Made by a program: the position numbers and the translations under genes | Assembly: GCA_963169195.1 (NCBI GenBank) | Contig: CAUJDN010000061.1 | Location: forward strand, 19,833 to 83,832 | Source: Acidobacteriota bacterium | GTDB lineage: Bacteria > Acidobacteriota > Vicinamibacteria > Vicinamibacterales > UBA2999 | Direction: 5' to 3' | Length of the DNA: 64,000 nucleotides | Shown here: in pieces, positions 1,158 through 48,391 of the stretch | Layout: the number at the start of each line of letters is the position of its first letter | Position numbering within the stretch: position 1 is the first letter of the stretch | Notes under the pieces: model-generated | What the model saw: only the letters and a program-made list of their open reading frames with translations | The model's database searches: none | What the model was told of the DNA's origin: nothing

Positions 1158-4033
1158 GCACCTTCGATCCGCTCGACACGTTTGCGCCCCGTCATATCGG
1201 TCCGCGCGGCGCGGATCGGGAGGCGATGCTGAAGGCCGTGGGCGCGCCCTCGCTCGACGCGCTCATCGACCAGGCGGTTCCGGCCGGCATCCGCCTGTCG
1301 GCGCCCCTCGCGCTGCCGCCCGCCGAGAGCGAGTCCGCGTACCTCGCGCGGCTCGAGGCCATCGCTGCCAGGAACACGGTCTTCCGCAGTTTCATCGGCC
1401 TCGGGTACCACGACACCATCACGCCGGGCGTCATCAAGCGGATGGTCTTCGAGAACCCCGGCTGGTACACGCCGTACACGCCGTACCAGGCCGAGATCGC
1501 GCAGGGCCGCCTCGAATCGCTCCTCAACTTCCAGACGATGGTCACGGACCTGACCGCGATGGAGGTCGCCAACGCGTCGCTGCTGGACGAGGGCACGGCT
1601 GCCGGAGAGGCGATGACCCTGCTCCACCGGGTGCAGGGGAAGAAGCTCGGCGACCACGCGGGCGTCTTCCTCGTGTCCGATCGGGTCTTCCCGCAGACGC
1701 TCGCCGTGCTGCAGAGCCGCGCGGAGCCGCTCGGCATCGAGCTGCGCGTGGGCCCAGCGGACCAGATGGCGTTCGACGGCCCCGTGTTCGGGGCCCTCGT
1801 GCAGTACCCAGACGAGGCGGGGCGCCTGGACGATCTGCGGCCGTTCATCGCGCGCGCGCACGAGGCGGGCGTGCTGGTGGCGGTCGCCACGGACCTGCTG
1901 GCCCTCGCCGTCGTGACGCCGCCGGGCGAGATGGGCGCCGACATCGTCTTCGGCAACTCGCAGCGCTTCGGGGTCCCGCTGGGCTACGGCGGGCCGCACG
2001 CCGCGTTCTTCGCCACGCGCGAGGAGCACGTCCGGCACATGCCCGGCCGCATCATCGGCGTGTCGGTGGACGCGCAGGGGCACACCGCCTACCGCATGGC
2101 GCTGCAGACGCGCGAGCAGCACATCCGCCGCGAGAAGGCCACGTCCAACATCTGCACGGCTCAGGCGCTGCTGGCGAACATGGCGGCGATGTACGCCGTG
2201 TACCACGGGCCCGACGGCCTGCGCGCCATCGCGTCGCGCGTGCACGCGCTGGCGCACGCGCTGGCGGCCGCCCTCGAGCAGCTGGGCTACACGCAGGAGA
2301 ACCCGCACTACTTCGACACGCTGCGCCTCACCACGGCCGACGCCGCACAGACGACGGCCATCCTCGACCGGGCCGCGGCACACCACATCAACCTCCGCCG
2401 CGTGGACGGCACCTCCATCGGCATCGCGCTGGACGAGACGGTCACCCTTCCCGACCTCGTGGCGCTCGTCGAGGCCTTCGCGCTCGCCGCCGACAGGCAG
2501 GGCGCCGTGCCGCTGGCCACGCCCGACGATCCACTCGCGGACCTGCCGGCCCCCCTCCGGCGCACGAGCGCGTTCCTGACGCACCCGGTGTTCACCCGCC
2601 ATCGCTCGGAGACCGAGATGATGCGCTACATCCGGAGCCTCGAGCGGAAGGACGTGGGGCTGGACACGTCGATGATCGCGCTCGGCTCGTGCACGATGAA
2701 ACTGAACGCCGCGACCGAGATGGCCCCGGTGTCGTGGCCGGCCTTCTCGCGGCTGCACCCCTTCGCTCCGGCGGAGCAGGCCGAGGGCTACCGGCAGATC
2801 TGCGCGGAGCTCGAGTCGGCGCTCTGCGAGGTCACCGGCTTTGCGGCCGTGTCGCTGCAACCCAACTCCGGGGCGCAAGGCGAGTTCGCGGGCCTGGCGG
2901 TCATCCGCGCCCACCACCGGGCGCGCGGGCAGGAGCACCGGGACGTGGTGCTCATTCCCGCGTCGGCCCACGGCACCAACCCGGCGTCGGCCATCATGGC
3001 CGGCTTCCGGGTCGTCGTCGTGGCGACGGCGCCGAACGGGAACGTCGACGTGGCGGACCTGAAGGCCAAGGCCGCCGCCCATGCCGACGCGCTGGCGGCG
3101 CTGATGATCACCTACCCGTCCACGCACGGTGTGTTCGAGGACACCATCACGGAGATCTGCGAGGTCATCCACGAGCACGGTGGGCAGGTCTACATGGACG
3201 GCGCCAACATGAACGCGCAGGTGGGCCTCACCAGCCCCGCGTCGATTGGCGCGGACGTGTGCCACCTGAACCTCCACAAGACCTTCGCCATCCCGCACGG
3301 CGGCGGCGGCCCCGGCATGGGCCCCATCGGCGTGGCCGCGCACCTGGCCCCGTATCTTCCCGGCCACCCGCTGGTCGCCGTCGGCGGCACGAAGGCCATC
3401 CCCGCCGTGTCGGCCGCGCCGTGGGGGAGCGCCAGCATCCTGCTCATCTCCTACGGCTATGTCCGCATGCTGGGCGCGCAGGGCATGACCGACGCCACGC
3501 GCCACGCCATCCTCAACGCGAACTACGTCAAGGCGCGGCTCGAGCCGCACTACCCGGTGCTCTACGCGCGCGAGAACGGGCGCGTGGCCCACGAGCTGAT
3601 CTTCGACCTGCGGGCCTTCAAGGCGAAGGGCGTGGACGAGATCGACGTGGCCAAGCGCCTGATGGACTACGGCTTCCACGCGCCAACGGTGTCGTTCCCG
3701 GTCGCGGGCACGCTCATGGTCGAGCCGACCGAGAGCGAGCCGAAGGCGGAGCTGGATCGCTTCTGCGACGCGCTCATCGCCATCCGTCAGGAGATCGAGG
3801 AGGTCATCACCGGCGCGGCGGATCCGAAGGACAACGTCCTGAAGAACGCGCCGCACACCGCCGCCGTGGTCACGGCGGACACATGGACGCGCCCGTACTC
3901 GCGCGAGAAGGCCGCCTTCCCGCTGCCGTGGGTCAAGGCCGGCAAGGTGTGGCCGGCCGTCGGGCGCATCGACAACCCGTACGGCGACCGCAACCTCGTC
4001 TGCGTCTGTCCGCCGATGGAGAGCTACGCGTGA
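1154..4033 (+). CDS. gcvP: Glycine dehydrogenase (decarboxylating) GcvP, single-chain form
   Basis: A GTG at 1154 overlaps the gcvH stop (GTGA). The protein starts [17 protein letters not shown].. and carries the PLP-lysine motif ..[19 protein letters not shown]... The upstream part of ORF 236..4033 overlaps gcvT/gcvH out of frame and is not coding. Confidence 0.93.
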
Positions 4034-4134: not shown

Positions 4135-5721
4135 ATGCGGATCCTGAACGCCGACCAGATGCGGGAGGCCGATCGCGCCACCATCCACGACGTCGGGATC
4201 CCCGCGATCGTGTTGATGGAGAACGCGGGCCGGCAGGTCGTGGCCGCCGTTGAATCGCTCTACGACGACCTCGCCGAGCGGCAGGTGGCCGTCATCGCCG
4301 GCCGGGGCAACAACGGCGGCGACGGGTTCGTCGTGGCGCGCACGCTGCACCAGCGCGGCGTGGACACCACCGTGTTCCTGGTCGGGCGCGTCGCCGAGGT
4401 GAAGGGCGACGCCCGCACGAACCTCGACATCCTCGGGCGCCTCGGCGTCACCGTCGTCGAGGTCGCGGACGAGGGCGCGTGGGAGCTGCACTTCTCCGAA
4501 ATCAGCCGGCACGATCTCCTCGTGGACGCGCTGTTCGGCACGGGCCTCAAGACCGCGCTCTCGGGCCTCTACCAGACCGTCGTGGCCGACCTCAACGGCA
4601 GTGGCATCCCCATCGTGTCCATCGACCTGCCTTCCGGGATGTCGGCGGATACGCCGGACCTCATCGGGGACTGTGTGGAGGCGTCGGTGACGGTCACGCT
4701 GGGCGCGCCGAAGCTGCCGCTCATCCTGCCGCCGGCGGAACAGAAGTCGGGCGAGGTGGTGATTGCGGACATCGGCATCCCGATGGGGGTCATCGATCAG
4801 CTCGAGGGGCCCCACATCGAGCTGGTCACGCGCGAGCGCCTCCGGCCGCTGGTCGCGCCTCGCGCGCCGGACGCGCACAAGGGCGACTTCGGCCGCGTGC
4901 TCATCGTGGCGGGTTCGGTGGGGAAGACCGGCGCGGCCGCGCTGGCGGCGCAAGGGGCGCTGCGCTCCGGCGCGGGGCTCGTGACCATCGCGTGCCCGCG
5001 GTCCTGCCAGCCCGTTGTCGCGGCCCACGGGCTCGAGTACATGACCGAGCCGCTCGACGAGACACCCGCCGGGACGGTGCACTTCTCGGCCGCGGAGAGC
5101 GTGCTGGGGCTGGACGCGGACGTGCTGGTGGCCGGCCCCGGCCTGGGGCGCGGCGAGGGGGTGGCCACCTTCGTGCGCGAGGTGGTGGAGAAGAGCGAGG
5201 CGCCGCTCGTCCTCGACGCGGATGCCCTCAACGCGTTCGCCGACGAACCGGCGGCGCTCGTCGGACGGGATGGGCGGGACATCATCATCACGCCGCATCC
5301 CGGCGAGATGGCGCGGCTGGCGGGATGCACGGCCGACGACGTGCAGGCGAATCGGCTTGGCATGGCGAGCGACTTCGCGCGCCGTCACAGGCTGTACGTC
5401 GTGTTGAAGGGCTATCGCACGCTGATCGCCACGCCGTCGGGCCGCGTCTTCGTCAATCCCACGGGCTCGCCGGGCATGGCGACCGGAGGCACGGGAGACG
5501 TGCTCGCGGGCATGCTGGGGGCATGGCTGGCGCAGCTGCTCGACGCCGAGGCCGCCTGCCGCCTGGCGGTGTACCTCCACGGTGCTGCGGGCGAGCTGGC
5601 CGACGCCGATACCGGCGAGGTGTCGATGACAGCCGGGGATCTGGCGGAGCACATCGGCGACGCCGTGCTCGAACTGAGCGCCCGTCGGCGCGTGCCCGTG
5701 CGCCGCGCGCAGGAGGAATGA
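4135..5721 (+). CDS. nnr: Bifunctional NAD(P)H-hydrate repair enzyme (epimerase / ADP-dependent dehydratase, YjeF family)
   Basis: 528 aa. N-terminal YjeF_N (..AGRGNNGGDGFVVAR..) and C-terminal carbohydrate-kinase-like part (..KGDFGRVLIVAGS.., ..GTGDVLAGM..). Confidence 0.9.
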   Translation: MRILNADQMREADRATIHDVGIPAIVLMENAGRQVVAAVESLYDDLAERQVAVIAGRGNNGGDGFVVARTLHQRGVDTTVFLVGRVAEVKGDARTNLDILGRLGVTVVEVADEGAWELHFSEISRHDLLVDALFGTGLKTALSGLYQTVVADLNGSGIPIVSIDLPSGMSADTPDLIGDCVEASVTVTLGAPKLPLILPPAEQKSGEVVIADIGIPMGVIDQLEGPHIELVTRERLRPLVAPRAPDAHKGDFGRVLIVAGSVGKTGAAALAAQGALRSGAGLVTIACPRSCQPVVAAHGLEYMTEPLDETPAGTVHFSAAESVLGLDADVLVAGPGLGRGEGVATFVREVVEKSEAPLVLDADALNAFADEPAALVGRDGRDIIITPHPGEMARLAGCTADDVQANRLGMASDFARRHRLYVVLKGYRTLIATPSGRVFVNPTGSPGMATGGTGDVLAGMLGAWLAQLLDAEAACRLAVYLHGAAGELADADTGEVSMTAGDLAEHIGDAVLELSARRRVPVRRAQEE

Positions 5722-6170
5722 CCGGGACCTTCCGCTCGGGCTCGGAAGCACAGACCCGTGCGATGGCCGCCGGGCTGGCCGCCGGCCTCCAGCCCGGTGC
5801 CGTGCTGCTCATCTCCGGGGATCTCGGAGCCGGGAAGACGGCCTTCGTGCGGGGCCTGGCCGAAGGGCTCGGCCTGGATCCCGCGGAGGTGACCAGCCCC
5901 ACCTTCACGCTCGTCCACGAGTATCGGGGCGGGCGCCTGCCGCTCCTCCACGTGGACCTCTATCGCCTGGAGACAGCGGACCTCGACGAGATCGGCCTCG
6001 ACACCGACCTGGCCGCGGAGGGCGTGATTGCGGTGGAGTGGCCCGAGCGCCTCACGCGTGGCGTGCCCGGCGCCATCCGCGTCACCATCGAGGACGCCGG
6101 CGGCGACGCGCGTATCGTGAGGGTGTCAGGGGAACACGAAGGGCACGAAGGACGCACGAAGCACGCATGA
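5718..6170 (+). CDS. tsaE: tRNA t6A37 threonylcarbamoyl-transfer ATPase TsaE
   Basis: The ATG at 5718 overlaps the nnr stop (ATGA). P-loop ..GDLGAGKTAFVRG.., plus ..SPTFTLVHEY.. and ..HVDLYRL... The last 13 aa (GEHEGHEGRTKHA) are encoded by a CACGAAGG repeat array. Confidence 0.88.
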   Translation: MTGTFRSGSEAQTRAMAAGLAAGLQPGAVLLISGDLGAGKTAFVRGLAEGLGLDPAEVTSPTFTLVHEYRGGRLPLLHVDLYRLETADLDEIGLDTDLAAEGVIAVEWPERLTRGVPGAIRVTIEDAGGDARIVRVSGEHEGHEGRTKHA

Positions 6171-6272
6171 GGGAAGAACGGCCGCAGGGACTGGGACGCG
6201 GCCACAGCAGGGTCCGAGTTCCTTGATTCTCCTTCGCCTTCGTGTGTGCTTCTTCGCGTCCTTCGTGTTCCC
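6130..6272. terminator. Long imperfect inverted repeat built from CACGAAGG / CCTTCGTG units between convergent tsaE and guaB
   Basis: GGGAACACGAAGG (6130..6142) is a perfect 13-bp complement of CCTTCGTGTTCCC (6260..6272). More partial unit pairing lies inside. The left arm is the tsaE 3' coding end. Confidence 0.45.
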
Positions 6273-10817: not shown

Positions 10818-11744
10818 TCAGTTCGCGCTGCTGCTGCCGCGGCGCGCGTTGAGCAGGAACTGCAGGGGATTGAGGATCCGTCCGTTCACGCGGACCTCGT
10901 AGTGCAGGTGCGGTCCCGTGGCACGCCCCGTGGCCCCGACCAGGCCGATGAGGTCGCCCCGCTTCACGGCCTGGCCGCGCTGGGTGCGGAACGCCGAGAG
11001 GTGCCCGTAGCGCGACTCGAGGCCGAACTGGTGATCGATGACGACGAGGTTACCGTAGGCGCCGGAGAACGACGCCTGCGTGACCGTGCCGTCGGCCGTC
11101 GCGTAGACCGGTGTGCCGCGGTCGGCGGAGATGTCGAGGCCGGGGTGGTAGTCGGCCTCGCCCGTGAACGGGTCCGCCCGTCCGCCCGTGCGTGACGAGA
11201 GCCATCCGTGCGCCGGCCAGATGGACGGCGTGGCCGCGGCGAGCGCGTTGCGGCGATCCACGTCCGATCGCACGAGGCGCAGCCGGCTCTCGATGCCTTG
11301 CAGGAGGTCGCGCAGCAACCCGAAGGTATCCTCCGGCGAGGACAGGGCCGGCGTGAGCGCCGCGAGAGAGGTCTCGCTCGATCCACCCCCCATCGCACGG
11401 TTCTTCACGATGGCGGGCAGCTTGTCCATCGCCGACTGCAGCGCCGGGTCGAGGGCGGCACGGCCACCAAGGTCCGAAACGGCCGCCTGCAGCGCGGTGA
11501 TCTGGCCGGTGAGCGCCTCGGTGGCGCCGCGGAAGCTGCTGTTCTCCAGCTCGAGCGCAACGTGGGTCGCGTACAGATCCGCCACCTCGGCCTTCGCCTT
11601 CCACGCCGCGCCCAGCCCGATGAGGATGGGCAGGGTGAGCACTGTCCCCACGACCGACAGCAGCGGCCGCAGCCCGATAGTGAAACGTCGCACAACACCC
11701 GTGCGGCGATCGGCGACGACAACAGTGTAGCGATTCGACAGCAT
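10818..11744 (-). CDS. M23 family metallopeptidase (membrane anchor + coiled coil + LytM domain)
   Basis: C-terminal ..HPGLDISADRGTPVYATADG..GNLVVIDH..GATGRATGPHLHYEV.. retains the M23 metal ligands. The N-terminus has a TM helix. Confidence 0.88.
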   Translation of the reverse strand: MLSNRYTVVVADRRTGVVRRFTIGLRPLLSVVGTVLTLPILIGLGAAWKAKAEVADLYATHVALELENSSFRGATEALTGQITALQAAVSDLGGRAALDPALQSAMDKLPAIVKNRAMGGGSSETSLAALTPALSSPEDTFGLLRDLLQGIESRLRLVRSDVDRRNALAAATPSIWPAHGWLSSRTGGRADPFTGEADYHPGLDISADRGTPVYATADGTVTQASFSGAYGNLVVIDHQFGLESRYGHLSAFRTQRGQAVKRGDLIGLVGATGRATGPHLHYEVRVNGRILNPLQFLLNARRGSSSAN

Positions 11745-11900
11745 CTGAGATTGTGTATCGGCCCCGGCCCTTCAGGCGCCAGCCGGGGAGCCGGTTCACC
11801 AGGGGCTCGCGAACCGACCGACGCTGAAGGGTAGCACGGCGATCCAATCAGCTGAACAGGAAACTGCCAGGCCAGGAATACATTCGTCTTTTGATCGCTG

Positions 11901-13412
11901 TCAGGCCTGCTCCACGAACCGATACTGCAAGGCCTCCGCGAGGTGCGCCTCGACGATGCGGGCGGTACCCTCGAGGTCGGCAATCGTGCGGGCGACGCGC
12001 AGGACCCGGTGGTAGGCCCGCGCCGACAACGACAGGCGCTCGGCCGAACGGTCCAGCAGCTCACGCCCACGCGTGTCGAGGGCGCACGCCTTCTGCAGGC
12101 CTCGAGCGGGCAGGCGGGCATTCAGCAGCGGCTGCCGTCGCGCCTGCCGCTCGCGGGCCTCGAGGACGCGCCGCCGCACGGCAGATGAGGCCTCGCCCTG
12201 CGTGCCGCTGGCCAGGGCCCCGACGGGTACGGGTTCCACTTCCACGATGAGGTCCAGGCGATCGCGGAGCGGGCCCGAGATGCGCGCACGGTACCGATCG
12301 ATCTGCGGCGGCGTGCAGCGGCACGCGCGGGTGGAACTGCCGGCGTACCCGCAGGGACACGGGTTCATCGCGGCCACCAGCATGAACCGCGCGGGGAAGG
12401 CCACCGACCGCGCGGCCCGCGACACGGTGATGCATCCCTCCTCGACGGGCTGCCGCAGCGAGTCGAGGACGCGCCGGTCGAACTCCGGCATCTCGTCGAG
12501 GAAGAGCACGCCGTGGTGCGCCAGGCTGACCTCGCCAGGCCGCGGCTGCGATCCGCCGCCGACCAGCGCCGCGTCCGAGATCGTGTGATGCGGTGCGCGG
12601 AAGGGGCGGTCCGCGAGCAGGCCGCACCCGGGCGGAATGAGCCCCGCCACGGAGTGGATGGCCGTGGCCTCGAGCGCCTCTTCGAACTCGAGCGGTGGCA
12701 GGATGCCCGGCAGGCGCCGCGCGAGCATGGTCTTGCCGGCCCCCGGGGGGCCAATCATCAGCAGGTTGTGGCCGCCTGCCGCCGCCACCTCGAGCGCGCG
12801 GCGGGCGAAGGCCTGGCCGCGCAAGTCCGCCAGGTCCAGGCCGTCGCCGGATGCCGGCATCGGTCGGGCGTCCGGCCGCGGCGGCTCGGGCCACGCCTCG
12901 CGGGCCTGGTTCAGGAGCCCGACCGCCTCGGCCAGCGTCCGCACCGGCAAGAGGCGGAGGCCGTTCACCACCGAGGCCTCCACCGCGTTGCCGGCCGGGA
13001 GCAACAGCGCGGCAGCGCCCTGCTGGCGCGATGCCACCGCGATGGGCAGGATCCCGCGCGCCGTGTGAATGGTCCCGTCCAACGACAGTTCGCCGACGAT
13101 GACGATGTCGCGGATGTCGCGCGTAAGGACGATGCCGCTGGCGGCCAGGACGCCGAGCGCGATGGGCAGGTCGAACGAGGCCCCCGCCTTCCGCACGTCC
13201 GCCGGCGCCATGTTGATGACGATGCGATGCTGGGGGAAGTCGAAGCCGGAATTGCGGATGGCGGCGTGCACGCGGTCGCGGCTCTCCTTGACACTGGTGT
13301 CGGCCAGGCCGACCAGCTGGAACCTCGGGAGGCCGAAGCACAGGTCCACTTCGATGTGAACCGGGCTGGCCTCGATGCCGATGACGGCCGCGCTCTCGAG
13401 GCTGGCAAGCAT
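11901..13412 (-). CDS. comM: YifB/ComM family Mg-chelatase-like AAA+ ATPase
   Basis: Lon-protease-like N-domain and Walker A ..GPPGAGKTMLARR... The preferred start is Met20 of ORF 11901..13469 (MLASLESAAV..), which is typical for the family. The longer start at 13469 cannot be excluded. Confidence 0.87.
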   Translation of the reverse strand: MLASLESAAVIGIEASPVHIEVDLCFGLPRFQLVGLADTSVKESRDRVHAAIRNSGFDFPQHRIVINMAPADVRKAGASFDLPIALGVLAASGIVLTRDIRDIVIVGELSLDGTIHTARGILPIAVASRQQGAAALLLPAGNAVEASVVNGLRLLPVRTLAEAVGLLNQAREAWPEPPRPDARPMPASGDGLDLADLRGQAFARRALEVAAAGGHNLLMIGPPGAGKTMLARRLPGILPPLEFEEALEATAIHSVAGLIPPGCGLLADRPFRAPHHTISDAALVGGGSQPRPGEVSLAHHGVLFLDEMPEFDRRVLDSLRQPVEEGCITVSRAARSVAFPARFMLVAAMNPCPCGYAGSSTRACRCTPPQIDRYRARISGPLRDRLDLIVEVEPVPVGALASGTQGEASSAVRRRVLEARERQARRQPLLNARLPARGLQKACALDTRGRELLDRSAERLSLSARAYHRVLRVARTIADLEGTARIVEAHLAEALQYRFVEQA

Positions 13413-13590
13413 GCGCTCCGACGAGAGCAACCAATGTGCCCCGGCTGACGCGCGCAGGTTCCCGCGCAAAATCGCCGGGTGGGCCGCGGATGGCGGCCTG
13501 CGGATCGCAGGAGTTGCGCGACGCGCGCCCGTGGAGGTGCGCGCTTGCTGCGACGTGGTGCGACGACGGCTCGAGCCTCGTCAGGGAGAG

Positions 13591-15407: not shown

Positions 15408-17225
15408 TTACAACCGCCACCCTTCCCACGTGAACACCCGGGCCGCCTCGCCCGCGTCGCGTGCGGCGGGCGTGATGATGGTGCGCTCGCCGACGAGGAT
15501 CTTCCGGCCCTCCTTGACGGCGGTGCGGACATCGTCTTCGCACACGAACGACACTGGTGCGGCCGGCGCCTGGGCGGGCGCCGCCGGTGTGGCGACACCC
15601 GGGCCCGCCGGGGGCGTCGAAGCCCCCGGCACGCTCCCCGGCCTGGCCATGCCCCTGGTCGCCAGGAACTGGTCGATGCGGGACGCCAGGGTCGCCGCCG
15701 GGACGGGGTCGGCCACCGGCCTGGCCGGCGGCTTCGGGAGAGGTGGCTGGCTCGAGCCGGTGCTCCCGCCGGGAACGGCTGACGCCGACGATGGGGGCAA
15801 GGTCGCCGAGGCACGACCGGTCACCGCCACGTCGGGGTCGGGTGCCGGCGCGTCGACATCGCGGATGCCGTAGGCGAGCCGCTTGATGTTCAACAGATGC
15901 CGTGGGGAGATGTTGTCGGAGGTGATGTTCCCGCCGAAGCCGCCACACCCGAGCGTCATGGCCGGGTCGAGCCCGGTGGTCAGCCCGATCGACCCGTGTG
16001 TGGTCGGCGTGTTGACGACGATGCGGAAGGCGGGCTTGTGGAGCCCGAACTCCAGGATGACGGCCTCGTTGCGGGAGTGGATGGACATGGTGTGGCCCAT
16101 CCCGCCGTAGCGCAGGATCTGCTTGCAGCGCTCGCATCCTTCGCGCCAGTCCTTCACCACGTAGTACGAGAGGACGGGGCACAGTTTCTCGATGGAGAGG
16201 GGGAAGTCACGCCCGACGCCCGCCAGCTCCACGAGGAGCGCGCGCGTGCCCGCAGGCACGGCTACGCCCAGCCGCTCCGCGATGGCGGCGGCTGACTTGC
16301 CGACCAGCGCCGGGTTGGGCAGGCGTTGCGGCGTGATGAGCAGCTTCGCCAGCGCCTCGCCCTGTGCGGCGGACAGGAAGTGGCCGCCGTGGGCCGCAAA
16401 CGCCCGCCGGACCTCTTCATCGATGGCGCGATCCACGACGACCGAGTTCGGCGAGGAGCAGAGGACGCCGTGGTCGAAGCTCTTGCCGGCGACGATGTCG
16501 CGTGCGGCCTTCGACACGTCGGCCGACGACTCGATGTAGCAGGGGGCATTGCCCGGGCCAACGCCGTATGCCGGCTTGCCCGCGCTGTAGGCCGCGCGCA
16601 CGAGGCCCATGCCGCCGGTCGCGAGAATCACCGAGACCTCGCGGGCCTTCATGAGCTCCTGCGTGCCCTCGAGGGTGACGGTCGTCATCCACCCGATGGC
16701 GCCGTCGGGCAGGCCGGCACGCCTGGCGGCCTCGTGCATGATCTCGGCGGTGCGGGTGATGCAGCGGGCCGCGGCGGGGTGCGGGCTCAGCACGACCGCG
16801 CACCGGGCCTTGATCGAGATGAGCAGCTTGTAGATGGCCGTGGACGTCGGGTTGGTGGACGGCACGATGGCAGCCACCACGCCGAAGGGCTCGGCGATCT
16901 CGACGATCCTCTTCGCTTCGTCGCGCCGGACCACGCCGACGGTGGCCATTGGCCTGATGAACGCGTGGACGCGTCCGGAAGCGAACAGGTTCTTCTGGAC
17001 CTTGTCGGCGACGACGCCGAAGCCGGTCTCCTCGACGGCGAGCCGCGCCAGGGCCTCGGCGTGAGGCGTGACGGCCGCGGCCATGGCATCCACGATGGTG
17101 TCGATCTGCGGCTGGGTGAACTCCGCCAGGAGGGCCTGGGCGGCGCTCGCGCGGCGCACGAGCGCCCGCGCCTCGGCCATGGAGGCGAGATCCCTGTCGG
17201 TCTGTGCGGGAGCCCCGGTGGCCAC
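15408..17225 (-). CDS. CoA-acylating aldehyde dehydrogenase (AdhE N-terminal / ACDH-like) with ~150-aa Pro/Ala-rich C-terminal extension
   Basis: 605 aa. ALDH core with ..IVPSTNPTST.. and catalytic Cys region ..KSFDHGVLCSSPNSVVVD... The core ends near ..HLLNIKRLAY.., followed by low-complexity linkers and a terminal module. It starts 3 nt after the BMC-H stop. Confidence 0.85.
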   Translation of the reverse strand: MATGAPAQTDRDLASMAEARALVRRASAAQALLAEFTQPQIDTIVDAMAAAVTPHAEALARLAVEETGFGVVADKVQKNLFASGRVHAFIRPMATVGVVRRDEAKRIVEIAEPFGVVAAIVPSTNPTSTAIYKLLISIKARCAVVLSPHPAAARCITRTAEIMHEAARRAGLPDGAIGWMTTVTLEGTQELMKAREVSVILATGGMGLVRAAYSAGKPAYGVGPGNAPCYIESSADVSKAARDIVAGKSFDHGVLCSSPNSVVVDRAIDEEVRRAFAAHGGHFLSAAQGEALAKLLITPQRLPNPALVGKSAAAIAERLGVAVPAGTRALLVELAGVGRDFPLSIEKLCPVLSYYVVKDWREGCERCKQILRYGGMGHTMSIHSRNEAVILEFGLHKPAFRIVVNTPTTHGSIGLTTGLDPAMTLGCGGFGGNITSDNISPRHLLNIKRLAYGIRDVDAPAPDPDVAVTGRASATLPPSSASAVPGGSTGSSQPPLPKPPARPVADPVPAATLASRIDQFLATRGMARPGSVPGASTPPAGPGVATPAAPAQAPAAPVSFVCEDDVRTAVKEGRKILVGERTIITPAARDAGEAARVFTWEGWRL

Positions 17226-17228
17226 GCG

Positions 17229-17510
17229 TTAGCCCTTCGGCAGGATGCGTTCGACCTCGGCGTGCGGGCGGGGGATGACGTGCACCGAGATGAGCTCGCC
17301 CACGCGGCGCGCGGCCGCGGCGCCGGCGTCGGTGGCGGCCTTCACGGCGCCGACGTCGCCGCGCACCAGCACGGTCACGTAGCCGGCCCCGATGTATTCG
17401 GTGCCGATCAGCAGGACATTGGCGGCCTTCACCATGGCATCGGCCGCCTCGACCGAGCCGATGAACCCGCGTGTTTCCACCATGCCGAGCGCGTCGCGAG
17501 GGATGTCCAT
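17229..17510 (-). CDS. Bacterial microcompartment shell protein, BMC-H (PduA/EutM/CcmK fold, single BMC domain)
   Basis: 93 aa from Met32 of ORF 17229..17603: [63 protein letters not shown]..., a canonical Pfam00936-type pattern. Confidence 0.88.
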
Positions 17511-17545: not shown

Positions 17546-18433
17546 ATGCAACGAAGAGTGCCGCCCGTCCTGCGCGCGTGCGTGGCCCTCGCGCTCGCCA
17601 CACTCTGCGCCGCCTGCGGGGGCGGCGCGGACACCGCGCCCGCCGTGGGTCGCCTCGCCGTGTCGCTGTCGCGCGCGCGCGTGGCGCTCGGCAGCCCCGT
17701 CGATGTCAGTTACACGTTCACCCTCGCACCCGATGCACCCGCGCTCGGCACGCGGAAGGTGTTCGTCCACTTCCTCGACGCCAACGACGAGCTGATGTGG
17801 GTGGACGACCACGAGCCGCCGACGCCGACGGCCGAATGGAAGCCGGGCCAGACCATCGAGTACACGCGGACCATGTTCGTGGGGCGCCATCCCTACGTCG
17901 GCGCGGCGAGCGTGGTGGCCGGCCTCTACTCGCCCGAGTCCGGCGACCGCCTGATGCTCTCCAACGAGGATCGCGGCGACCGCTCGTACGCGGTGGCAGC
18001 CTTCGAGCTGCTCCCGCAGACCGAGAGCGTGTTCGTCGTCTTCAAGGACGGCTGGCACCCGGCGGAAATGGTGGGAGAGGGCGCGTCGCGCGTCGAGTGG
18101 CAGTGGACGAAGAAGGAGGCCACCGTGGCGTTCCGGAACCCGGCGCGCGACGTCGTGCTCTACCTTCAGGCCGACAACCCCAGCGGCAGCGCCAACGCCG
18201 CGCAGCAGCTGGAAGTCCGCCTGGGTGACCAGGTGCTCGGCACCGTGCCGCTCCGCCGCGATGGTCCCGTGGTGCAGAAGATCCCCATCACGGCCGCCCA
18301 GATGGGATCGGCGGACATGGTGGAACTGCGCTTCATCGCCGATAAGACCATTGTCCCGGCGCTCGAGCCCGGGGGGGCGGCGGGCGACTCCCGCGAGCTG
18401 GGCGCCCGCGTGTTTCACGCAGCCGTGCAGTAG
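17546..18433 (+). CDS. Secreted protein or lipoprotein of unknown function
   Basis: ATG at 17546. Signal peptide [26 protein letters not shown]. Coding-like composition, but no family assignment that I can support. Confidence 0.6.
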
Positions 18434-28581: not shown

Positions 28582-29820
28582 CTACGGGTTCACCCGGACC
28601 GTCAACTGGGCGAGCCCGGACGTCCCCGTCGTCGTCCGCACGGTGACGGTCGCGATGTAGGTGCCAGGCGCCGTGTAGCGATGGTTCGTCGTCGAGCCCG
28701 TGGTGACGGCGCCCCGGCCGTCGCCGAAGCTCCAGTCGTAGGACACGATTCCCGCCGACGACCCCAGGCCGCCGGCCGACGCCGAGAAGGCGACGATGCC
28801 CTGCTGCAGCGGGCTGCCGATTGACACCGGGTTCGGTGTCGCGGTCATCGTCAGCGGGACGGATGACTGGTCGTTCACGTTCACGACAATCGAGGACGTG
28901 CCCGTGATGCCCTGCGTGTCCGTGACCGCCGCCCGCACGGTGTAGACGCCCGCACGCGGGAAGGCATGCGCGACCGGCGTCGCACCCGAGATGGCGCCCA
29001 GGCGCGTCACCGCCGTGCCGTCGCCCCAGTCGATGACCACGTCCCGGATGCCATTCGTGCCCGTCCCGGCGACGGGCGTGATCGTGAAGGTCGCGCCGAC
29101 CCCGGCCTCGAGGCCCGTCGTCGGTGCGGCGATGGTCACCGCCGGCGATGAGGCGGTCACGTCGACGGTCGCGCTCTGGCCGCCGGCCGTGGCCGTCACG
29201 GTCGCGGACCGCGGCGCCGTGAGCGTCGTGCGAGCCTCGCCACTGGCGGTGGTGATGGCCTGGCCGGCCGAGAGTTGTCCTGCGGTCGTCGTGAACGTGA
29301 CGGGCACGCCCAGCAGTGGGTTACCCGCCGCGTCCACGACGGTGGCGATGACGTCCGTGCTGCCGCCGGTGGCGGGGATGGTCTGCGGATCCGCGCGCAG
29401 GATGATGCGCGCGGCCGCGGCGCCGCCGACGAGGATCTCCACTTCTGTGGCGCGGGTCGCGCCGGAGAACGCGCCGATCTTCGCCGTGCCGGACTGGGCG
29501 CTCGCGATGAAGCGCACCGTGGCCTTGCCGCCCTCCGTGCGAGCCTCCGTCGGGTCGATGGTGCCGAACGAGGAGGTGAACGTGACGACGGTGCCATTCT
29601 GCACCGGCGTGCCCGCCGATTCGGTCACCGAGGCGGACACCTCTGCCGTGCCGTTGACCGGCACGACCGTCGTGCTGACCGTCAGGGTGATGGTGGACTC
29701 GGTTGGCGCCAGCAGGGGCACCTTGTCGCAGGCCGACAGAGTGGCCGCCGCGAACAGGAGCGCGAAAAGCGACGAGCGGGAACGTGACACGGGCAAGGCC
29801 AATAAGGATAATAGGCGCAT
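28582..29820 (-). CDS. Lipoprotein with tandem bacterial Ig-like (Big) and PKD-like domains
   Basis: Signal peptide/lipobox ..AATLSAC. Repeated ~85-aa Thr/Val/Ala-rich beta modules (..GTAEVSASVTESAGTPVQNGTVVTFTSS..). Two PKD-type motifs (VVIDWGDGT.., VSYDWSFGDGR..). Confidence 0.75.
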   Translation of the reverse strand: MRLLSLLALPVSRSRSSLFALLFAAATLSACDKVPLLAPTESTITLTVSTTVVPVNGTAEVSASVTESAGTPVQNGTVVTFTSSFGTIDPTEARTEGGKATVRFIASAQSGTAKIGAFSGATRATEVEILVGGAAAARIILRADPQTIPATGGSTDVIATVVDAAGNPLLGVPVTFTTTAGQLSAGQAITTASGEARTTLTAPRSATVTATAGGQSATVDVTASSPAVTIAAPTTGLEAGVGATFTITPVAGTGTNGIRDVVIDWGDGTAVTRLGAISGATPVAHAFPRAGVYTVRAAVTDTQGITGTSSIVVNVNDQSSVPLTMTATPNPVSIGSPLQQGIVAFSASAGGLGSSAGIVSYDWSFGDGRGAVTTGSTTNHRYTAPGTYIATVTVRTTTGTSGLAQLTVRVNP

Positions 29821-30745
29821 GGGGTTAGCGGGTCAAGGCTGTCGCGCTGACGCGCGCGGCTACGCCATGGCCGCGTTGCTCGTCGGAATGAGCGTGATGG
29901 CCGTGATGATGGCGGCTGCGCTGCCCGTGTGGACGCATGTCGCCCAGCGCGAGAAGGAAGAGGAGTTGATCTGGCGCGGCGAGCAGTACCGGCGCGCCAT
30001 CATGCTGTTCCAGCGCCGCTACGCGAACACCTTCCCGCCGACCCTGGACGTCCTCGTCGAGCAGAAGTTCCTGCGGAAGAAATACAAGGACCCGATCGCC
30101 AACGACGACTTCCAGATCATTCCGGTCGGCGGCGCGATGCCGGGCGGCCGGCCCGGCATGCCTGCGACCGGCGGGCCAGCCAACGTCCCCGGCGGCCAGG
30201 GAGGCGCGGGTGGGTTCGGGGCGGCGCAGCCGGGCACGCCGGCAGGGGCGGCGACCTCGTCTTCGTTCGGCCAGGCCACGCAGCCCGCCATGGGCATCCA
30301 GGGCGTCACTTCGAAGAGCAAGGACCAGTCCATCAAGCTCTATAACGGGATGGACCGCTACAACCAGTGGGCGTTCGTGTATCTGGCCGCGTCCACGCAG
30401 GCGGGCGCGGGCGGAGCGGGGTTTGTGCAGCCCGGCATGCGTGGCCGCCCGCCAGGCGCCGGCGGGCCGCCGGGTGGGGGCTTCGGCCAGCCTGGCGGAG
30501 GCTTCGGGCCGCCGGGAGGGGGTTTCGGGCAACCGGGAGGCGGGTTCGGTCAGCCAGGCGGGGGCTTCGGTCAGCCTGGAGGAGGGTTTGGCCAGCCGGG
30601 CGTTCCCGCCCAGCCGAAGTACCCGCCGGTGCCCGGGGGGGCCGGCTCGCCCGGTGGCTTCGGGGCGCCTGGCGGTGGCGTCCCTCCGGCGGGGCCTGGC
30701 GGTTCGGTGTTCACGCCGGGTACCCCCGGCAGCGGTGGACAATAA
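29819..30745 (+). CDS. Divergent GspG-like protein lacking Glu+5, with Gly-rich C-terminal tail containing (GGGFGQP)x6
   Basis: N-terminus ..ARG|YAMAALLVGMSVMAVMM... Its body parallels the two pseudopilins (REKEEEL.., ..FPPTLDVLVEQKFLRKKYKDPI..). An alternative start is ATG 29867. Confidence 0.6.
   Translation: MGLAGQGCRADARGYAMAALLVGMSVMAVMMAAALPVWTHVAQREKEEELIWRGEQYRRAIMLFQRRYANTFPPTLDVLVEQKFLRKKYKDPIANDDFQIIPVGGAMPGGRPGMPATGGPANVPGGQGGAGGFGAAQPGTPAGAATSSSFGQATQPAMGIQGVTSKSKDQSIKLYNGMDRYNQWAFVYLAASTQAGAGGAGFVQPGMRGRPPGAGGPPGGGFGQPGGGFGPPGGGFGQPGGGFGQPGGGFGQPGGGFGQPGVPAQPKYPPVPGGAGSPGGFGAPGGGVPPAGPGGSVFTPGTPGSGGQ
30473..30598 (+). repeat. Six in-frame 21-bp tandem repeats encoding GGGFG(Q/P)P
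   Basis: The units differ mainly at synonymous positions (GGTGGGGGCTTCGGCCAGCCT / GGCGGAGGCTTCGGGCCGCCG / ...). Confidence 0.9.
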
Positions 30746-30820: not shown

Positions 30821-32527
30821 TCAACGGCGCGCGATCAGCCAGGCGGCACCACCGGCCACGGTGACGTACGGCAGAACAGCCCCGGGACCGCCAAAGAGCA
30901 GCGCGCCTATTCCCAGCAGCACGGCGTAGACCAGCGCGGTGCCCGCGATCCACTTCACGAAGAGCGGCGCAAGTGCGTCGGGCGGCGGCTCGCCGGCCAG
31001 CGCGGCGATGCGTGTCCACCCCGGTCCGCCGGGTCGGGTCAGCGTGTAGAACCTGGCGAGTTGCGCGTCCGACTCGGGCGGCGTCAGGACGGTCACCATC
31101 AGCCACCACGCCGTGGTCCACGCGACAACGATCAGCAGCGTGGCCGGGAAGGTCACGTCCATCGTGAGCTTGACGGCGGCGTATCCGACGGCGGCCGCCA
31201 CCATGGCGCTGATCTCGGACCACGCGTTCACGCGCCACCAGTACCAGCGCAGGATGAGCACGAGCCCGATGCCCGCGCCGCTCTCGAGCACGAACTCCCA
31301 CGCCTGCCGGATGCTTTCGAGATAGAACGTGACCACGGCGCTCGCCACCATCAACGCCAGCGTGGTCACCCGCGACACGAGCACGTAGTGGGGCTCGCCG
31401 CCGCCGGTCCGCACGAATCGGCGGTAGAAGTCGTTGACGATGTAGGACGTGCCCCAGTTGAGCTGCGTGGAGATCGTGGACATGTAGGCGGCGAAGAACG
31501 CACCGAGCAGCAGGCCGCGCCAGCCCTGCGGGAGGTGATCGCGAATCACCATCACGTAGCCGGCTTCCCTGTCGGCGATGGTGGGGTAGAGCACCGTCGA
31601 CACGAGGCCGACGAGAATCCAGGGCCACGGGCGCACGCAGTAGTGCGCGACGGTGAACCAGAGCGTGGCGAAGAACGCATGCCGCTCGTCCTTCGCCGAC
31701 ATCATGCGCTGCGCGATGTAGCCGCCGCCGCCGGGCTCCTGCCCCGGGTACCAGCTGGACCACCACTGCACGCCGACATAGGCGAGGAAGGCACCCAGCG
31801 GCAGGCCGGCGACGGCGCCGGCGATGTCCGTGGCCTCGAACGACGGCAGGACGCTGAGGACCTGGGGGTCGAGCGAGCGCGCGAGGCCCTCGAGTCCGCC
31901 CACCTCCGGCACGCGCAGCGCGAACCACGCCAGGGCGATGGTGCCGGTCATGGCCAGGGTGAACTGGAAGAAGTCGGCCGCGACGACGCCCCAGAGTCCC
32001 CCGACCGCGCTGTAGACGCCGGTGATGGCCAGGCTGATGAGGACCGCGGTGAGCGTGTCCCACCCGAGCGTCACCGCAAGGATCTTGGCCATGGCCAGGT
32101 TGACCCAGCCCATGACGACGCAGTTGATGAGGATTCCGAGATAGAGCGCGCGGAAACCGCGGAGCACGGCAGCCGGCCGCCCCGAGTAGCGCAGCTCCGC
32201 GAACTCGACGTCGGTGAGGATGCCCGCGCGGCGCCACAGGCGGGCGAAGAAGAAGACGGTGAGCACGCTGCCCGTCGCCGCGCTCCACCAGATCCAGTTG
32301 CCGGCAATGCCGTTCCTCGCGACGATGCCGGCCACGGCCAGCGGCGTGTCGGCGGCGAAGGTCGTCGCCACCATGGAGGTCCCCGCGAGCCACCAGGGCA
32401 GCTGCCGGCCGCCGAGGAAGAAGTCGGCGACGCTGCGGCCCCCGCGCTTCGAGAGCCACAGGCCAAGCGACGCCGAACAGACGAAGTAGGCGGCGATGAA
32501 GGCCCAGTCGAGGGGCGTGAGGATCAC
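30821..32527 (-). CDS. Sodium:solute symporter (SSF) family transporter
   Basis: GTG start at 32527 (VILTPLDWAFIAAYF..). ~13 TM segments with the typical SSF N-terminus ..DFFLGGRQLPWWLAGTSMVATTFAADTPL... The upstream part of ORF 30821..33343 runs out of frame through the next gene. Confidence 0.85.
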   Translation of the reverse strand: MILTPLDWAFIAAYFVCSASLGLWLSKRGGRSVADFFLGGRQLPWWLAGTSMVATTFAADTPLAVAGIVARNGIAGNWIWWSAATGSVLTVFFFARLWRRAGILTDVEFAELRYSGRPAAVLRGFRALYLGILINCVVMGWVNLAMAKILAVTLGWDTLTAVLISLAITGVYSAVGGLWGVVAADFFQFTLAMTGTIALAWFALRVPEVGGLEGLARSLDPQVLSVLPSFEATDIAGAVAGLPLGAFLAYVGVQWWSSWYPGQEPGGGGYIAQRMMSAKDERHAFFATLWFTVAHYCVRPWPWILVGLVSTVLYPTIADREAGYVMVIRDHLPQGWRGLLLGAFFAAYMSTISTQLNWGTSYIVNDFYRRFVRTGGGEPHYVLVSRVTTLALMVASAVVTFYLESIRQAWEFVLESGAGIGLVLILRWYWWRVNAWSEISAMVAAAVGYAAVKLTMDVTFPATLLIVVAWTTAWWLMVTVLTPPESDAQLARFYTLTRPGGPGWTRIAALAGEPPPDALAPLFVKWIAGTALVYAVLLGIGALLFGGPGAVLPYVTVAGGAAWLIARR

Positions 32528-32534
32528 GCGCGGA

Positions 32535-33584
32535 TTATACGTGCGCGAGGTCGCCGGCCACGGCGTCGTGCAGTTCGGGACGCACGCGCGCCATGGCATC
32601 GCCCGCGCGTGTGGGGTGCACGCGGTTCGAGAGCAATACGACGTAGTGGTCCTGGACCGGGTCGATCCACAGCGACGTGCCCGTGAAGCCGGTGTGCCCG
32701 AACGCACCGGGCGACATGCGCGTGCCGCAGGACGAGGTGGGCCGCATCGTGTCCCAGGCGAGCGCGCGCGAGCTGGCCGGCACGGGCCCCCGCGACACGA
32801 ACTCGCGGTAGATCGGCCTCGTCTCGTCGGCCGCGGCGCGCAACCACCAGCGGGCGCAGGCGCCGACCGCCGCGGCTGTGCCGAAGAGCCCGGCGTGCGC
32901 GGCGACGCCCCCGAGGGCGGTGGCGTTCTCGTCGTGCACCTCGCCCACGAGGACGCGCCCGCGCCATGGATCCATCTCCGTGGGCGCGATGCGCGCGCGC
33001 CAGTCGCGCGGCGGCAGGAACCGCAGCGGCAGGGCCGCGTCGATGGCCGCGGCCCGCCAGGCGTCGAACTGCGCGTCCAGCGGACGTCCTGCCGCGTGCT
33101 CGAGCGCCAGGCCCAGCAGGATGAACCCGGTGTCGGAGTAGACGCTCCGCGTGCCCGGCTCGTACTCGAGGGGCTCCGCGCAGATGGCCTCCTCGAACGC
33201 CGCGCGGCCCTCGAGCCGCTCGTAGTAGCGCCGATGCGCCGGCAGGCCCGAGGCGTGCAGCAGGAGGTGTCGCAACGTGACCGCCTGCCGGTCGGCGCCC
33301 GTCCAGCCCGGGACCCATCGGTGCACCGGATCGTCGAGGCCAATCGCCCGCCGCGTCACGAGGCTCGCGGCCACTGCCGCGGTCGCGAGCACCTTGGTGA
33401 GCGAGGCCAGGTCGTAGATCGTGTCCGGCGCGACCTCCGTGCTGCCGGGCTCGTATGACAGGCAGCCGGTCGGGAGGCACGTGAGGGCTCGCTCCCTGGT
33501 CCCCACCTCCAGGACGGCGCCCGGGAACACGCGTGCCTCGACGGCCGATGCGAGCACGCGCCGGGACCACTCGAAGGTGCTCAC
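32535..33584 (-). CDS. Serine hydrolase of the beta-lactamase / PBP (class C-like) fold
   Basis: The GTG at 33584 overlaps the upstream symporter stop (GTGA). Active-site S-x-x-K (..YDLASLTKVLAT..), ..YSDTGF.. and ..HTGFTGT.. motifs. Confidence 0.85.
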   Translation of the reverse strand: MSTFEWSRRVLASAVEARVFPGAVLEVGTRERALTCLPTGCLSYEPGSTEVAPDTIYDLASLTKVLATAAVAASLVTRRAIGLDDPVHRWVPGWTGADRQAVTLRHLLLHASGLPAHRRYYERLEGRAAFEEAICAEPLEYEPGTRSVYSDTGFILLGLALEHAAGRPLDAQFDAWRAAAIDAALPLRFLPPRDWRARIAPTEMDPWRGRVLVGEVHDENATALGGVAAHAGLFGTAAAVGACARWWLRAAADETRPIYREFVSRGPVPASSRALAWDTMRPTSSCGTRMSPGAFGHTGFTGTSLWIDPVQDHYVVLLSNRVHPTRAGDAMARVRPELHDAVAGDLAHV

Positions 33585-35026: not shown

Positions 35027-35043
35027 CACCCGCCCCGTCCGTC

Positions 35044-36327: not shown

Positions 36328-36386
36328 CGGTCATCCGTCAACGCGTAGTCACGCGAAGCCCCGCCGCGGCGTCGTAAGCTAGGACG

Positions 36387-46542: not shown

Positions 46543-46650
46543 GTGAGCGGGCCCTTCGGGCAGGCGCTTCGCGTGGGCGCCGGTGCGGTGGGCCCAGGCA
46601 GCCTCAGGTCAAACCCCCGAATACGGAGCCGCAGATCATCAACAGGCAGA

Positions 46651-48365: not shown

Positions 48366-48391
48366 CACGCGGGAGCGTGCGGGTTTCACGC

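Follow-up and report, generated by a model that had tools for sequence, protein, structure and literature searches.

The gene pair at positions 15,408 to 17,510 of the window (the whole 64-kb stretch of DNA that was analysed) is very probably a satellite locus of an ACI-type bacterial microcompartment (BMC) in a Vicinamibacterales genome, the remaining organelle genes lying at a main locus elsewhere. ACI is an Acidobacteria-specific BMC type, occurring mainly in subdivision 4 or 6, and is represented by 125 loci in the catalogue of Sutter, Melnicki, Schulz, Woyke & Kerfeld (2021, Nat Commun 12:3809, Supplementary Data 2; PMC8217296). In most ACI genomes, the aldehyde dehydrogenase (AldDh) locus is a satellite accompanying the main locus (PMC8217296). 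The first-pass annotation had left two alternatives for the pair. The first, which made it a satellite of another locus, almost certainly holds, whereas the second, an uncatalogued minimal arrangement, was wrong because the published catalogue describes this arrangement as the ACI satellite. The finding is therefore essentially ordinary, and the pair in itself matters little, having been classified in 2021. It serves as a worked example: when an acidobacterial genome shows a single shell gene with an enzyme beside it, an ACI satellite is the reading to adopt, rather than a minimal organelle. [quoted passage not shown] The elements of the pair are as follows.

17229..17510, minus strand: BMC-H shell protein gene (93 aa, single PF00936 domain), the ACI satellite BMC-H
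17233..17237, minus strand: AAGGG Shine-Dalgarno-like element, inside the 3' end of the BMC-H gene and 7 nt upstream of the AldDH GTG
15408..17225 including the stop codon, minus strand: gene for a type I (AdhE/ACDH-like) CoA-acylating aldehyde dehydrogenase (AldDH; 605 aa, GTG start)

The 93-aa BMC-H reported by the first-pass annotation is real. It matched PF00936 with an E-value of 3.7e-28 over positions 1-75 of the 75 in the profile, and it contains the canonical BMC-H motifs, namely the standard edge lysine K25 and IPRPH. Its closest NCBIfam model was EutM. In the catalogue, a BMC-H beside the ACI AldDh is described as "occasional" and belongs to class H_fuchsia or H_royalpurple, with standard interface motifs (PMC8217296). 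Among the matches listed, satellite BMC-H proteins of other Acidobacteria were 85-96% identical to that of the window, and a BMC-H search of genome contigs returned only satellites among the matches listed, which did not extend to the genome of the window itself. The satellite form shares 76% identity with the BMC-H of the ACI main locus and lacks the C-terminal PIGKxxAKA tail.

Only 3 nt separate the BMC-H stop codon from the AldDH start (TAA CGC GTG, read from the sequence), and the AAGGG element inside the BMC-H 3' end suggests that translation of the two genes may be coupled. The GTG start is supported by the conserved N-terminal motif TD[RK]DLAS[IM]AEAR and by residue 16, a Met that is Ile in most homologues; judged from this alignment, public 590-aa gene calls starting at Met16 are truncated. 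The conserved N-terminus, the ORF coordinates and a match to PF00171 together bore out the earlier call of a 605-aa CoA-acylating AldDH directly downstream of BMC-H. Scans for sigma-70-like promoters and intrinsic terminators at the pair found none, using consensus models that may not suit Acidobacteria. This result, together with the unrelated housekeeping genes around the pair, would fit a cytosolic acetaldehyde/acyl-CoA dehydrogenase that is functionally independent of the shell gene beside it, which would be a relic or have a moonlighting role. Such an arrangement is extremely unlikely in view of the 3-nt gap, the Shine-Dalgarno-like element inside the BMC-H gene, the retention of the pair across subdivisions 4 and 6 with differing flanks, and a C-terminal targeting tail present in all 120 AldDH homologues, whose terminal module occurs elsewhere only in BMC-locus proteins.

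The satellite reading is also consistent with the host and with synteny. The host order is Vicinamibacterales (Acidobacteria subdivision 6), and the AldDH homologues come from entries named Vicinamibacterales or Acidobacteria. An identical AldDH protein was found with identical synteny on "Vicinamibacterales_1_contig_539", in GCA_020853475.1 (an "Acidobacteria bacterium" MAG) and on 15 other contigs. Synteny in relatives was confirmed in six other subdivision-6 loci (AldDH identity 65-78%), which keep both the pair and its flanks, with PilB-PilC-SLT-lipoprotein on one side and the divergent BMC-H-AldDH-MltD-ComM-M23-SecA on the other. The BMC-H/AldDH adjacency is common to subdivisions 4 and 6, though the flanks differ; the subdivision-4 loci correspond to a variant in the catalogue that has a fourth BMC-P. 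BMC-H adjoined AldDH in all the loci examined from subdivisions 6 and 4, but BMC-H had served as the query that retrieved them, which biases this sample.

We then considered whether the pair could have been acquired recently from Firmicutes as part of a foreign EUT2-type locus, as the clustering of AldDH with EUT2 enzymes and the EutM match of BMC-H might indicate. However, the GC content (~0.71) and GC3 (0.82-0.92) of the pair are host-like, its chromosomal context is conserved across the order, and AldDH is only 47-50% identical to EUT2 enzymes compared with 54-86% within Acidobacteria. The synteny and composition data effectively refute a foreign origin.

The best NCBIfam models of AldDH were TIGR02518 acetylating ACDH (593.5 bits) and AdhE (519 bits); the TIGR02518 score lies just below the cut-off of 620.1, so that AldDH is a same-clade relative rather than an equivalog, although this was the best family by a wide margin. 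The PduP/EutE-type model PRK15398 gave 235 bits and did not reach its cut-off of 403. AldDH also matched PDB entries 5j78 and 3k9d (E ~1e-141), and it clustered in the type I BMC AldDh clade in a tree built without MIC3 Planctomycetes sequences, the MIC3 AldDh being the only close phylogenetic relative of the ACI AldDh in the catalogue (PMC8217296). The scores and the clade placement upheld the earlier assignment to the AdhE/ACDH branch and not the PduP/EutE branch. The accompanying remark that this branch is unusual in metabolosomes was mistaken, as it corresponds to the catalogue's type I BMC AldDh class (IPR013357), which has a C-terminal encapsulation peptide (EP) and comes mostly from EUT2 loci (PMC8217296).

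Compared with the type I AldDhs of EUT2 loci (IPR013357/TIGR02518; Listeria lmo1179, PDB 3k9d), the window enzyme belongs to the same ALDH subfamily, keeps the catalytic Cys, carries a C-terminal targeting extension and has an adjacent shell gene. The EUT2 enzymes differ in lying inside complete loci and in having only a short C-terminal EP without a module of the EutQ N-terminal type. AldDH shares fold and family with the N-terminal ACDH part of AdhE (42% identity to that of E. coli) and with stand-alone acetylating ACDH (PDB 5j78), but it has no alcohol dehydrogenase domain, possesses a BMC-targeting tail and is encoded with a shell protein. The type II enzymes PduP and EutE (IPR012408) have the same metabolosome role, conversion of an aldehyde to an acyl-CoA, but form a separate clade with 28-33% identity and carry N-terminal EPs. 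No N-terminal extension was found in AldDH by structure alignment or in the homologue survey. The parts of the enzyme are listed below, all on the minus strand.

15828..17225, minus strand: catalytic ALDH domain, residues 1-466, aligned to residues 26-474 of 5j78
16458-16460, minus strand: catalytic Cys256, within the lineage-specific GVLCSSPNS (16443-16469)
15741..15827, minus strand: linker 1, residues 467-495, Pro/Ser/Ala-rich and variable, with low column conservation across 120 homologues
15648..15740, minus strand: EP region, residues 496-526, a conserved block in the tail alignment, led by LPKxPxKPxPEP
15657-15698, minus strand: EP helix, residues 510-523, AATLASRIDQFLAT, an AlphaFold2 helix with pLDDT ~80
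15555..15647, minus strand: linker 2, residues 527-557, Pro/Ala-rich and not conserved, pLDDT ~50 with no secondary structure
15411..15554, minus strand: C-terminal 48-aa module, residues 558-605, highly conserved and homologous to EutQ N-terminal H1/H2

The clearest sign that AldDH is a BMC cargo is its C-terminal tail of ~140 aa, consisting of the EP and a small domain, which is conserved in all 120 homologues. The first-pass annotation had overlooked this tail. In the AlphaFold2 model, the terminal module forms a compact beta-H1-beta-beta-H2-beta fold (pLDDT ~90). Compared with PDB structures by Foldseek, the tail model had no significant match (best E-value 0.6), and Pfam with permissive thresholds assigned no family to the module. 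Alignment with modules from outside Acidobacteria by hhalign, however, gave a probability of 97.9% (E=3e-13), and an HMM built from acidobacterial AldDH tails alone matched residues 8-39 of E. coli EutQ (E=5e-7) and residues 5-37 of Neobacillus EutQ (E=3.5e-11). By these profile matches, the module is a homologue of the EutQ N-terminal H1/H2 region. It is also the domain of unknown function, ~50 aa in length, that follows the EP near the C-terminus of ACI AldDh in the catalogue (PMC8217296). Outside AldDHs, it was confined to products of BMC loci; in other phyla it is joined to aldolases, to a PduL phosphotransacylase and to EutQ cupins, or is found in stand-alone proteins of ~120 aa. An exhaustive profile search with the module yielded 608 matches and carries no information on other architectures, because all of those inspected were AldDH C-terminal fragments.

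With these features, the pair showed no substantive difference from the ACI satellite locus. Both come from subdivision 6 and have an AldDh encoded away from pentamer genes; both enzymes are of the type I, C-terminal-EP class and carry a domain of ~50 aa after the EP near their C-terminus; and in both a BMC-H with standard interface motifs adjoins the AldDh, an arrangement that is "occasional" according to the catalogue and invariable in the loci we examined.

The absence of other BMC genes from the 64 kb, claimed earlier, was corroborated. Queries for BMC-P, BMC-H and class II aldolase (tblastn) recovered true genes in dozens of control loci and found no further BMC gene in the window, and Pfam annotation of nearly all window ORFs gave housekeeping genes only, besides the pair. 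Neither PF03319 nor the aldolase was present in the 15 kb to one side of the pair or the 46 kb to the other, or within ±10 kb of the pair in the six other subdivision-6 loci. The main-locus neighbourhood genes folP, cdaA, glmM, pdxJ, queE and queC were also absent from the 64-kb window.

According to the catalogue, the ACI main locus comprises a PF00596 aldolase with a C-terminal EP, a PF00389/PF02826 dehydrogenase, a BMC-H and a BMC-P triplet (PMC8217296). Complete main loci, with the aldolase, BMC-H, three BMC-P and the 2-hydroxyacid dehydrogenase, were recovered from Vicinamibacterales MAGs and soil metagenomes, and one metagenome locus (L154) was annotated gene by gene. The order aldolase-BMC-H-P-P-P was seen in ~50 of 80 metagenome loci at 62-70% GC, and precomputed Pfam calls gave Aldolase_II-BMC-EutN_CcmL x3-2-Hacid_dh in GCA_964386715.1 and dozens of other contigs. 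Homologues of the main-locus aldolase were named Vicinamibacterales. In related genomes, the main locus is flanked by pdxJ/TPR and by queE/queC. Exact main-locus shell sequences were dropped as cross-species probes, being too species-specific (42 distinct BMC-H sequences in 70 copies), and BMC-P motifs were too short and too variable across clades for a degenerate high-GC DNA pattern.

Exact-sequence look-up of seven aldolase variants (P0131, P0227, P0122, P0248, P0276, P0277 and P0266) led in every case to complete ACI main loci, none of them from window-species samples (ERZ24907728, JGI 3300009873, GCA_020853475.1 and Logan runs). Among the NCBI accession blocks compared, no aldolase lay near MCC7033661. 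These look-ups tied no main locus to the window genome or to any genome holding the pair, a weak negative because they sampled only a few exact aldolase sequences. For the taxon and in the literature, a classified locus type with this pair as a routine satellite does exist, and we infer that its main locus is present in the window's own genome.

BMC-H proteins are able to form tubes and sheets by themselves. The pair might be a self-sufficient minimal system with no main locus, in which sheets, tubes or open scaffolds of BMC-H display AldDH, attached by its EP and terminal module, in place of a closed, pentamer-capped shell. The 64 kb free of pentamer and other BMC genes, the outcome of the few aldolase look-ups in window-species samples and the putative shell-binding module of AldDH itself would all agree with such a system. 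Nevertheless, we consider it very unlikely. The catalogue places the AldDh satellite alongside a main locus in most ACI genomes (PMC8217296), the order is rich in complete main loci of matching GC content, and the EP arrangement of AldDH is similar to that of the aldolase from the main locus, implying that both enzymes belong to one organelle.

On the satellite reading, BMC-H would be an extra hexameric shell tile, and AldDH the core aldehyde-oxidising cargo enzyme of the ACI organelle. The main locus elsewhere would provide the class II aldolase with its C-terminal EP, a second BMC-H, the BMC-P vertex-pentamer triplet, the 2-hydroxyacid dehydrogenase and small Cys/His-rich proteins. Within the shell, the aldolase would cleave a substrate that is probably a phosphorylated deoxy-sugar, and AldDH would use NAD+ to turn the aldehyde released into an acyl-CoA. 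Recruitment of AldDH would depend on the C-terminal tail, in which the amphipathic EP helix (residues 510-523) would drive association with the cargo core and shell, while module 558-605 would probably make direct contact with shell hexamers, perhaps those formed by the satellite BMC-H that is co-translated with the enzyme. In the literature searched, ACI was mentioned only by the 2021 catalogue (PMC8217296), and its function is experimentally uncharacterised. It is a large BMC type and very abundant in soil metagenomes, in a dominant soil phylum.

[quoted passage not shown] The AldDH module is homologous to EutQ residues ~3-42, is likewise predicted to be a small two-helix domain and likewise occurs in BMC contexts only. 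In EutQ, however, the module is N-terminal and is followed by an EP-binding H3/H4 region and a cupin domain, whereas in AldDH it is C-terminal and fused to a cargo enzyme with its own EP; shell binding is known for Salmonella EutQ only. Having both an EP and an H1/H2-type module, AldDH may act as a tether in cis, in contrast to EutQ in Eut organelles. The catalogue had left the terminal domain unexplained and the shell-binding function of H1/H2 was reported only in 2025, and their link offers a testable hypothesis on how ACI cargo attaches to the shell. From its distribution, the module may be a shell-anchoring domain of general use in BMCs, one that so far has neither a name nor a Pfam model. 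A small portable domain of this kind across many BMC types could help the engineering of cargo loading. We propose only tentatively, as a combination that could well fail, that AldDH is a cis shell-cargo tether, the satellite BMC-H a dedicated tile, the module a general shell-anchoring domain and the active-site substitution a mark of altered chemistry.

This substitution lies beside the catalytic Cys, residue 256, in the catalytic-region motif KSFDHGVLCSSPNSVVVD of AldDH. EUT2 AldDhs keep the canonical C-A-S-E-Q-S, whereas the window enzyme has C-S-S-P-N-S, with Pro in place of Glu. Its chemistry may therefore differ from that of characterised type I enzymes, and the subdivision-6-specific change from Glu to Pro may mark this alteration. 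All homologues from subdivision 6 in the motif survey had C-S-S-P-N-S, whereas those from subdivision 4 have kept C-A/S-S-E-Q.

ORF calling placed two genes in tandem on the minus strand, and the first-pass annotation of a 93-aa BMC-H (hexamer shell protein) gene followed 3 nt later by an aldehyde dehydrogenase (AldDH) gene was confirmed:

17229-17510, minus strand: BMC-H, 93 aa
15408-17225, minus strand: AldDH, 605 aa

The shell protein matched the whole PF00936 profile (E=3.7e-28), had EutM as its nearest NCBIfam model, and carried the usual IPRPH motif and a second usual motif (10 letters, not shown). The 605-aa protein was a PF00171 match in Pfam. The junction reads AAGGGC-TAA-CGC-GTG, with an SD-like element 7 nt ahead of the AldDH GTG, which is the correct start. 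The N-terminal stretch TD[RK]DLAS[IM]AEAR is kept among homologues, most of which have Ile in place of Met16, the alternative start; the 590-aa public gene calls are therefore truncated. Most public calls of this AldDH use Met16 (window 17180 vs 17225; loci L162-L171), which removes the conserved segment and conceals that the gene is coupled to BMC-H across 3 nt.

Divergent from BMC-H lies a predicted lipoprotein gene without a Pfam match:

17546-18433, plus strand: predicted lipoprotein, 295 aa

The two start codons are 35 bp apart, a notably small shared intergenic region. Every subdivision-6 locus keeps the lipoprotein in synteny (44-76% identity). The protein is probably an exported one with no link to the BMC.

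The first-pass annotation had also reported no further BMC gene in the 64 kb, and tblastn and Pfam annotation agree on this. Using EutN, PduN and CcmL query sequences, tblastn found no credible pentamer in the window, and the window BMC-H and aldolase queries found no credible second BMC-H or class II aldolase there. The pentamer, BMC-H and aldolase queries did pick up true genes across dozens of control loci. Query proteins from one complete ACI (Acidobacteria-specific BMC type) main locus matched only the known BMC-H in the window. Pfam searches of essentially every ORF revealed an ordinary chromosomal core: GcvP, YjeF, IMPDH, SecA, M23 peptidase, ComM, MltD-like SLT/LysM, type IV pilus genes, SSF transporters, amino-sugar recycling genes, a XerC/D-like recombinase, LptFG, ParAB, MiaB, RecN, Tol-Pal, SSB, PtsP and RpoN.

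Close AldDH homologues (71-100% identity, all 566-613 aa) came from Vicinamibacterales/Acidobacteria MAGs and soil metagenomes. The identical protein, flanked by the window's neighbours, was found on 17 contigs, including ENA 'Vicinamibacterales_1_contig_539' (123.8 kb), a JGI contig (80.7 kb) and NCBI GCA_020853475.1. Synteny extended to relatives: six further subdivision-6 loci kept the entire context, in which PilB-PilC-SLT-295-aa lipoprotein flanks one side and BMC-H-AldDH-MltD-ComM-M23-SecA runs divergently from it. Because this context is conserved at only 65-78% AldDH identity, the pair is old and vertically inherited in the order. Subdivision-4 (Pyrinomonadales) loci kept BMC-H-AldDH in different surroundings. 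Satellites there are larger (L004-L011, L014, L016, L019, L021), with BMC-H-AldDH often followed by a pentamer (BMC-P) that ends in a charged tail (...DNGRR) and then, 1-5 kb downstream, by another BMC-H of more divergent sequence.

Two readings of the pair had been proposed, a satellite of a locus elsewhere or an uncatalogued minimal shell-plus-AldDH system. The BMC locus-type catalogue lists, as occasional features of ACI, a BMC-H 'with an AldDh' and a fourth BMC-P next to the AldDh (Sutter et al. 2021, PMC8217296); this fourth-pentamer variant is the arrangement seen in the Pyrinomonadales loci. The catalogued ACI AldDh has an encapsulation peptide (EP) near the C-terminus followed by a ~50-aa domain (PMC8217296), and the window AldDH tail fits this layout. 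Of the two readings the satellite one is favoured, and the pair very probably represents the already catalogued ACI satellite locus. The gene-pair arrangement is already known, and a new minimal system is very unlikely.

The 125 catalogued ACI loci come only from Acidobacteria, for the most part from subdivisions 4 and 6. Besides a BMC-P triplet and one or more BMC-H genes, the ACI main locus encodes a hydroxyacid dehydrogenase and a PF00596 aldolase that carries an EP at its C-terminus (Sutter et al. 2021, PMC8217296). When metagenomes were scanned with PduN-like pentamers, 80 loci were returned, about 50 of which showed aldolase-BMC-H-P-P-P at 62-70% GC; their BMC-H was about 76% identical to that of the window. 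Examples in Vicinamibacterales are:

L154, 8282-12280: small Cys-rich protein, aldolase ending ...LTYRELSALIEDAIRSLR, BMC-H, three BMC-P, 2-hydroxyacid dehydrogenase
L172, 9693-13355: ACI main locus
L180, L182, L193: ACI main loci

Homologues of the L154 aldolase were named Vicinamibacterales, and exact-sequence look-ups and precomputed Pfam calls showed genes in that order in GCA_964386715.1 and on dozens of further contigs. The site was always the same, with folP-cdaA-glmM-pdxJ-TPR on one side and HhH-GPD-PPIase-DUF72-queE-queC on the other. An ACI main locus thus exists in Vicinamibacterales. Seven exact-sequence aldolase look-ups and an accession comparison found no genome holding both pair and main locus, and no common sample; a probable main locus in the window's genome therefore rests on the catalogue statement and on how abundant both loci are within the order. 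At the main-locus site, ybbR is also present between cdaA and glmM. A protein of 100-108 aa, which has a hydrophobic helix at its N-terminus and a Cys-rich C-terminus (...DPVCGTFV...YFCS..C...), is encoded by a gene that shares 4 nt with the aldolase start, and a 65-75-aa Cys/His-rich protein follows the third pentamer.

The AldDH had been assigned to the AdhE/ACDH branch rather than PduP/EutE, and NCBIfam scores, identities and a quick NJ tree bore this out. The top NCBIfam model was TIGR02518 acetylating acetaldehyde dehydrogenase (593.5 bits, under the 620.1 cut-off), followed by AdhE (519 bits), with PduP/EutE-type PRK15398 at only 235 bits. The closest solved relatives were acetylating ACDHs (5j78, 3k9d; E about 1e-141), then AdhE. 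By identities and tree, the enzyme grouped with BMC AldDhs of EUT2 Firmicutes, Chloroflexi and Spirochaetes (47-57%) and with AdhE-N (42%), apart from E. coli EutE and PDU, HO, GRM and PVM-like enzymes (28-33%). The claim that this branch is unusual for metabolosomes did not hold, as it is the 'type I' class of the catalogue (IPR013357, C-terminal EP), which is dominated by EUT2 (PMC8217296).

The active site carries a motif present in all subdivision-6 (Vicinamibacterales) ACI AldDHs:

16443-16469, minus strand: G-V-L-C-S-S-P-N-S, AldDH residues 253-261

C-S-S-P-N-S from catalytic Cys256 occurred in all 120 subdivision-6-type homologues; the motif is C-A/S-S-E-Q-S/A in 5j78, in EUT2 enzymes and in ACI enzymes from subdivision 4 and other Acidobacteria. 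Glu-to-Pro and Gln-to-Asn replacements two and three residues past Cys256 are thus fixed in the subdivision-6 enzymes. This variant is a modest, testable addition, as is a EutQ-type annotation of the terminal domain.

In the homologue alignment, tail residues 467-495 and 527-557 were variable, 496-526 formed a conserved block (LPKxPxKPxPEPIS..L..RID.FLA.RG), and 558-605, the terminal module, were highly conserved. In the AlphaFold2 prediction (19-sequence alignment), residues 510-523 are helical, the linkers are disordered and the terminal module folds compactly as beta-H1-beta-beta-H2-beta (pLDDT about 90). By tblastn, the tail matched the N-terminal part of a EutQ cupin from a Neobacillus EUT locus, and the same ~40-aa pattern (...[LF][IV].E.D[VI]R.A...G.K.[IL].[VI].....[IV][IV]TP.A[RK]D...) recurred across many BMC loci. 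Profile-profile alignment of acidobacterial tails with non-acidobacterial copies gave 97.9% probability (E=3e-13), and an HMM from acidobacterial tails only matched EutQ of E. coli K-12 (residues 8-39, E=5e-7) and Neobacillus (residues 5-37, E=3.5e-11). No Pfam model covers the module (PF06249 spans only the cupin), NCBIfam TIGR02536 includes it at its C-terminus, and a structure search of the predicted tail against the PDB found no similar solved structure. The catalogue gives EutQ-like homology for a Chloroflexi SPU6 protein, not for the ACI AldDh (PMC8217296). In Salmonella Eut BMCs, EutQ uses its N-terminal H1/H2 (deletion 9-41) to bind the shell where EutM and EutL meet, and H3/H4 to bind cargo EPs (2025, PMC12487888). 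By homology, the AldDH terminal module probably docks on shell hexamers.

Among the comparison loci retrieved in this analysis, the module was found at the N-terminus of EutQ cupins and of class II aldolases also carrying a C-terminal EP, at the C-terminus of a PduL phosphotransacylase (PTAC), as stand-alone ~120-aa proteins in Chloroflexi, and in three tandem copies within one protein. Carriers of this EutQ-N-type module are:

L034, ~5200-6200
L121, ~12400-13500 (also L095, L100, L125, L128, L129, L131, L160)
L049, L050, L063, ~11150-12400
L033, ~2800-3600
L076, 9758 and 12560
L090, L107

Among these carriers are also a EutQ cupin with adenosyltransferase and ~240-aa proteins with no family assigned (module C-terminal).

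Across the window, GC is uniform at about 0.70, falling to about 0.65 at 46000-50000 across ParB/ParA, a bifunctional nuclease and MiaB; the presence of parAB suggests that the replication origin may be close to the window. The other features are:

30821-38993: cluster resembling amino-sugar/MurNAc recycling (two SSF transporters, GHL10 glycosyl-hydrolase-like protein, BadF/NagK-type ATPase, NagB-like isomerase, MurQ-like SIS protein)
28991-30745, 39963-41666 and 61040-62791, plus strand: large ORFs of 567-584 aa with coding-like GC3

None of these three ORFs had a Pfam match at E<=1e-4, and second-position GC was unusually high (0.61-0.62) in the first and third.
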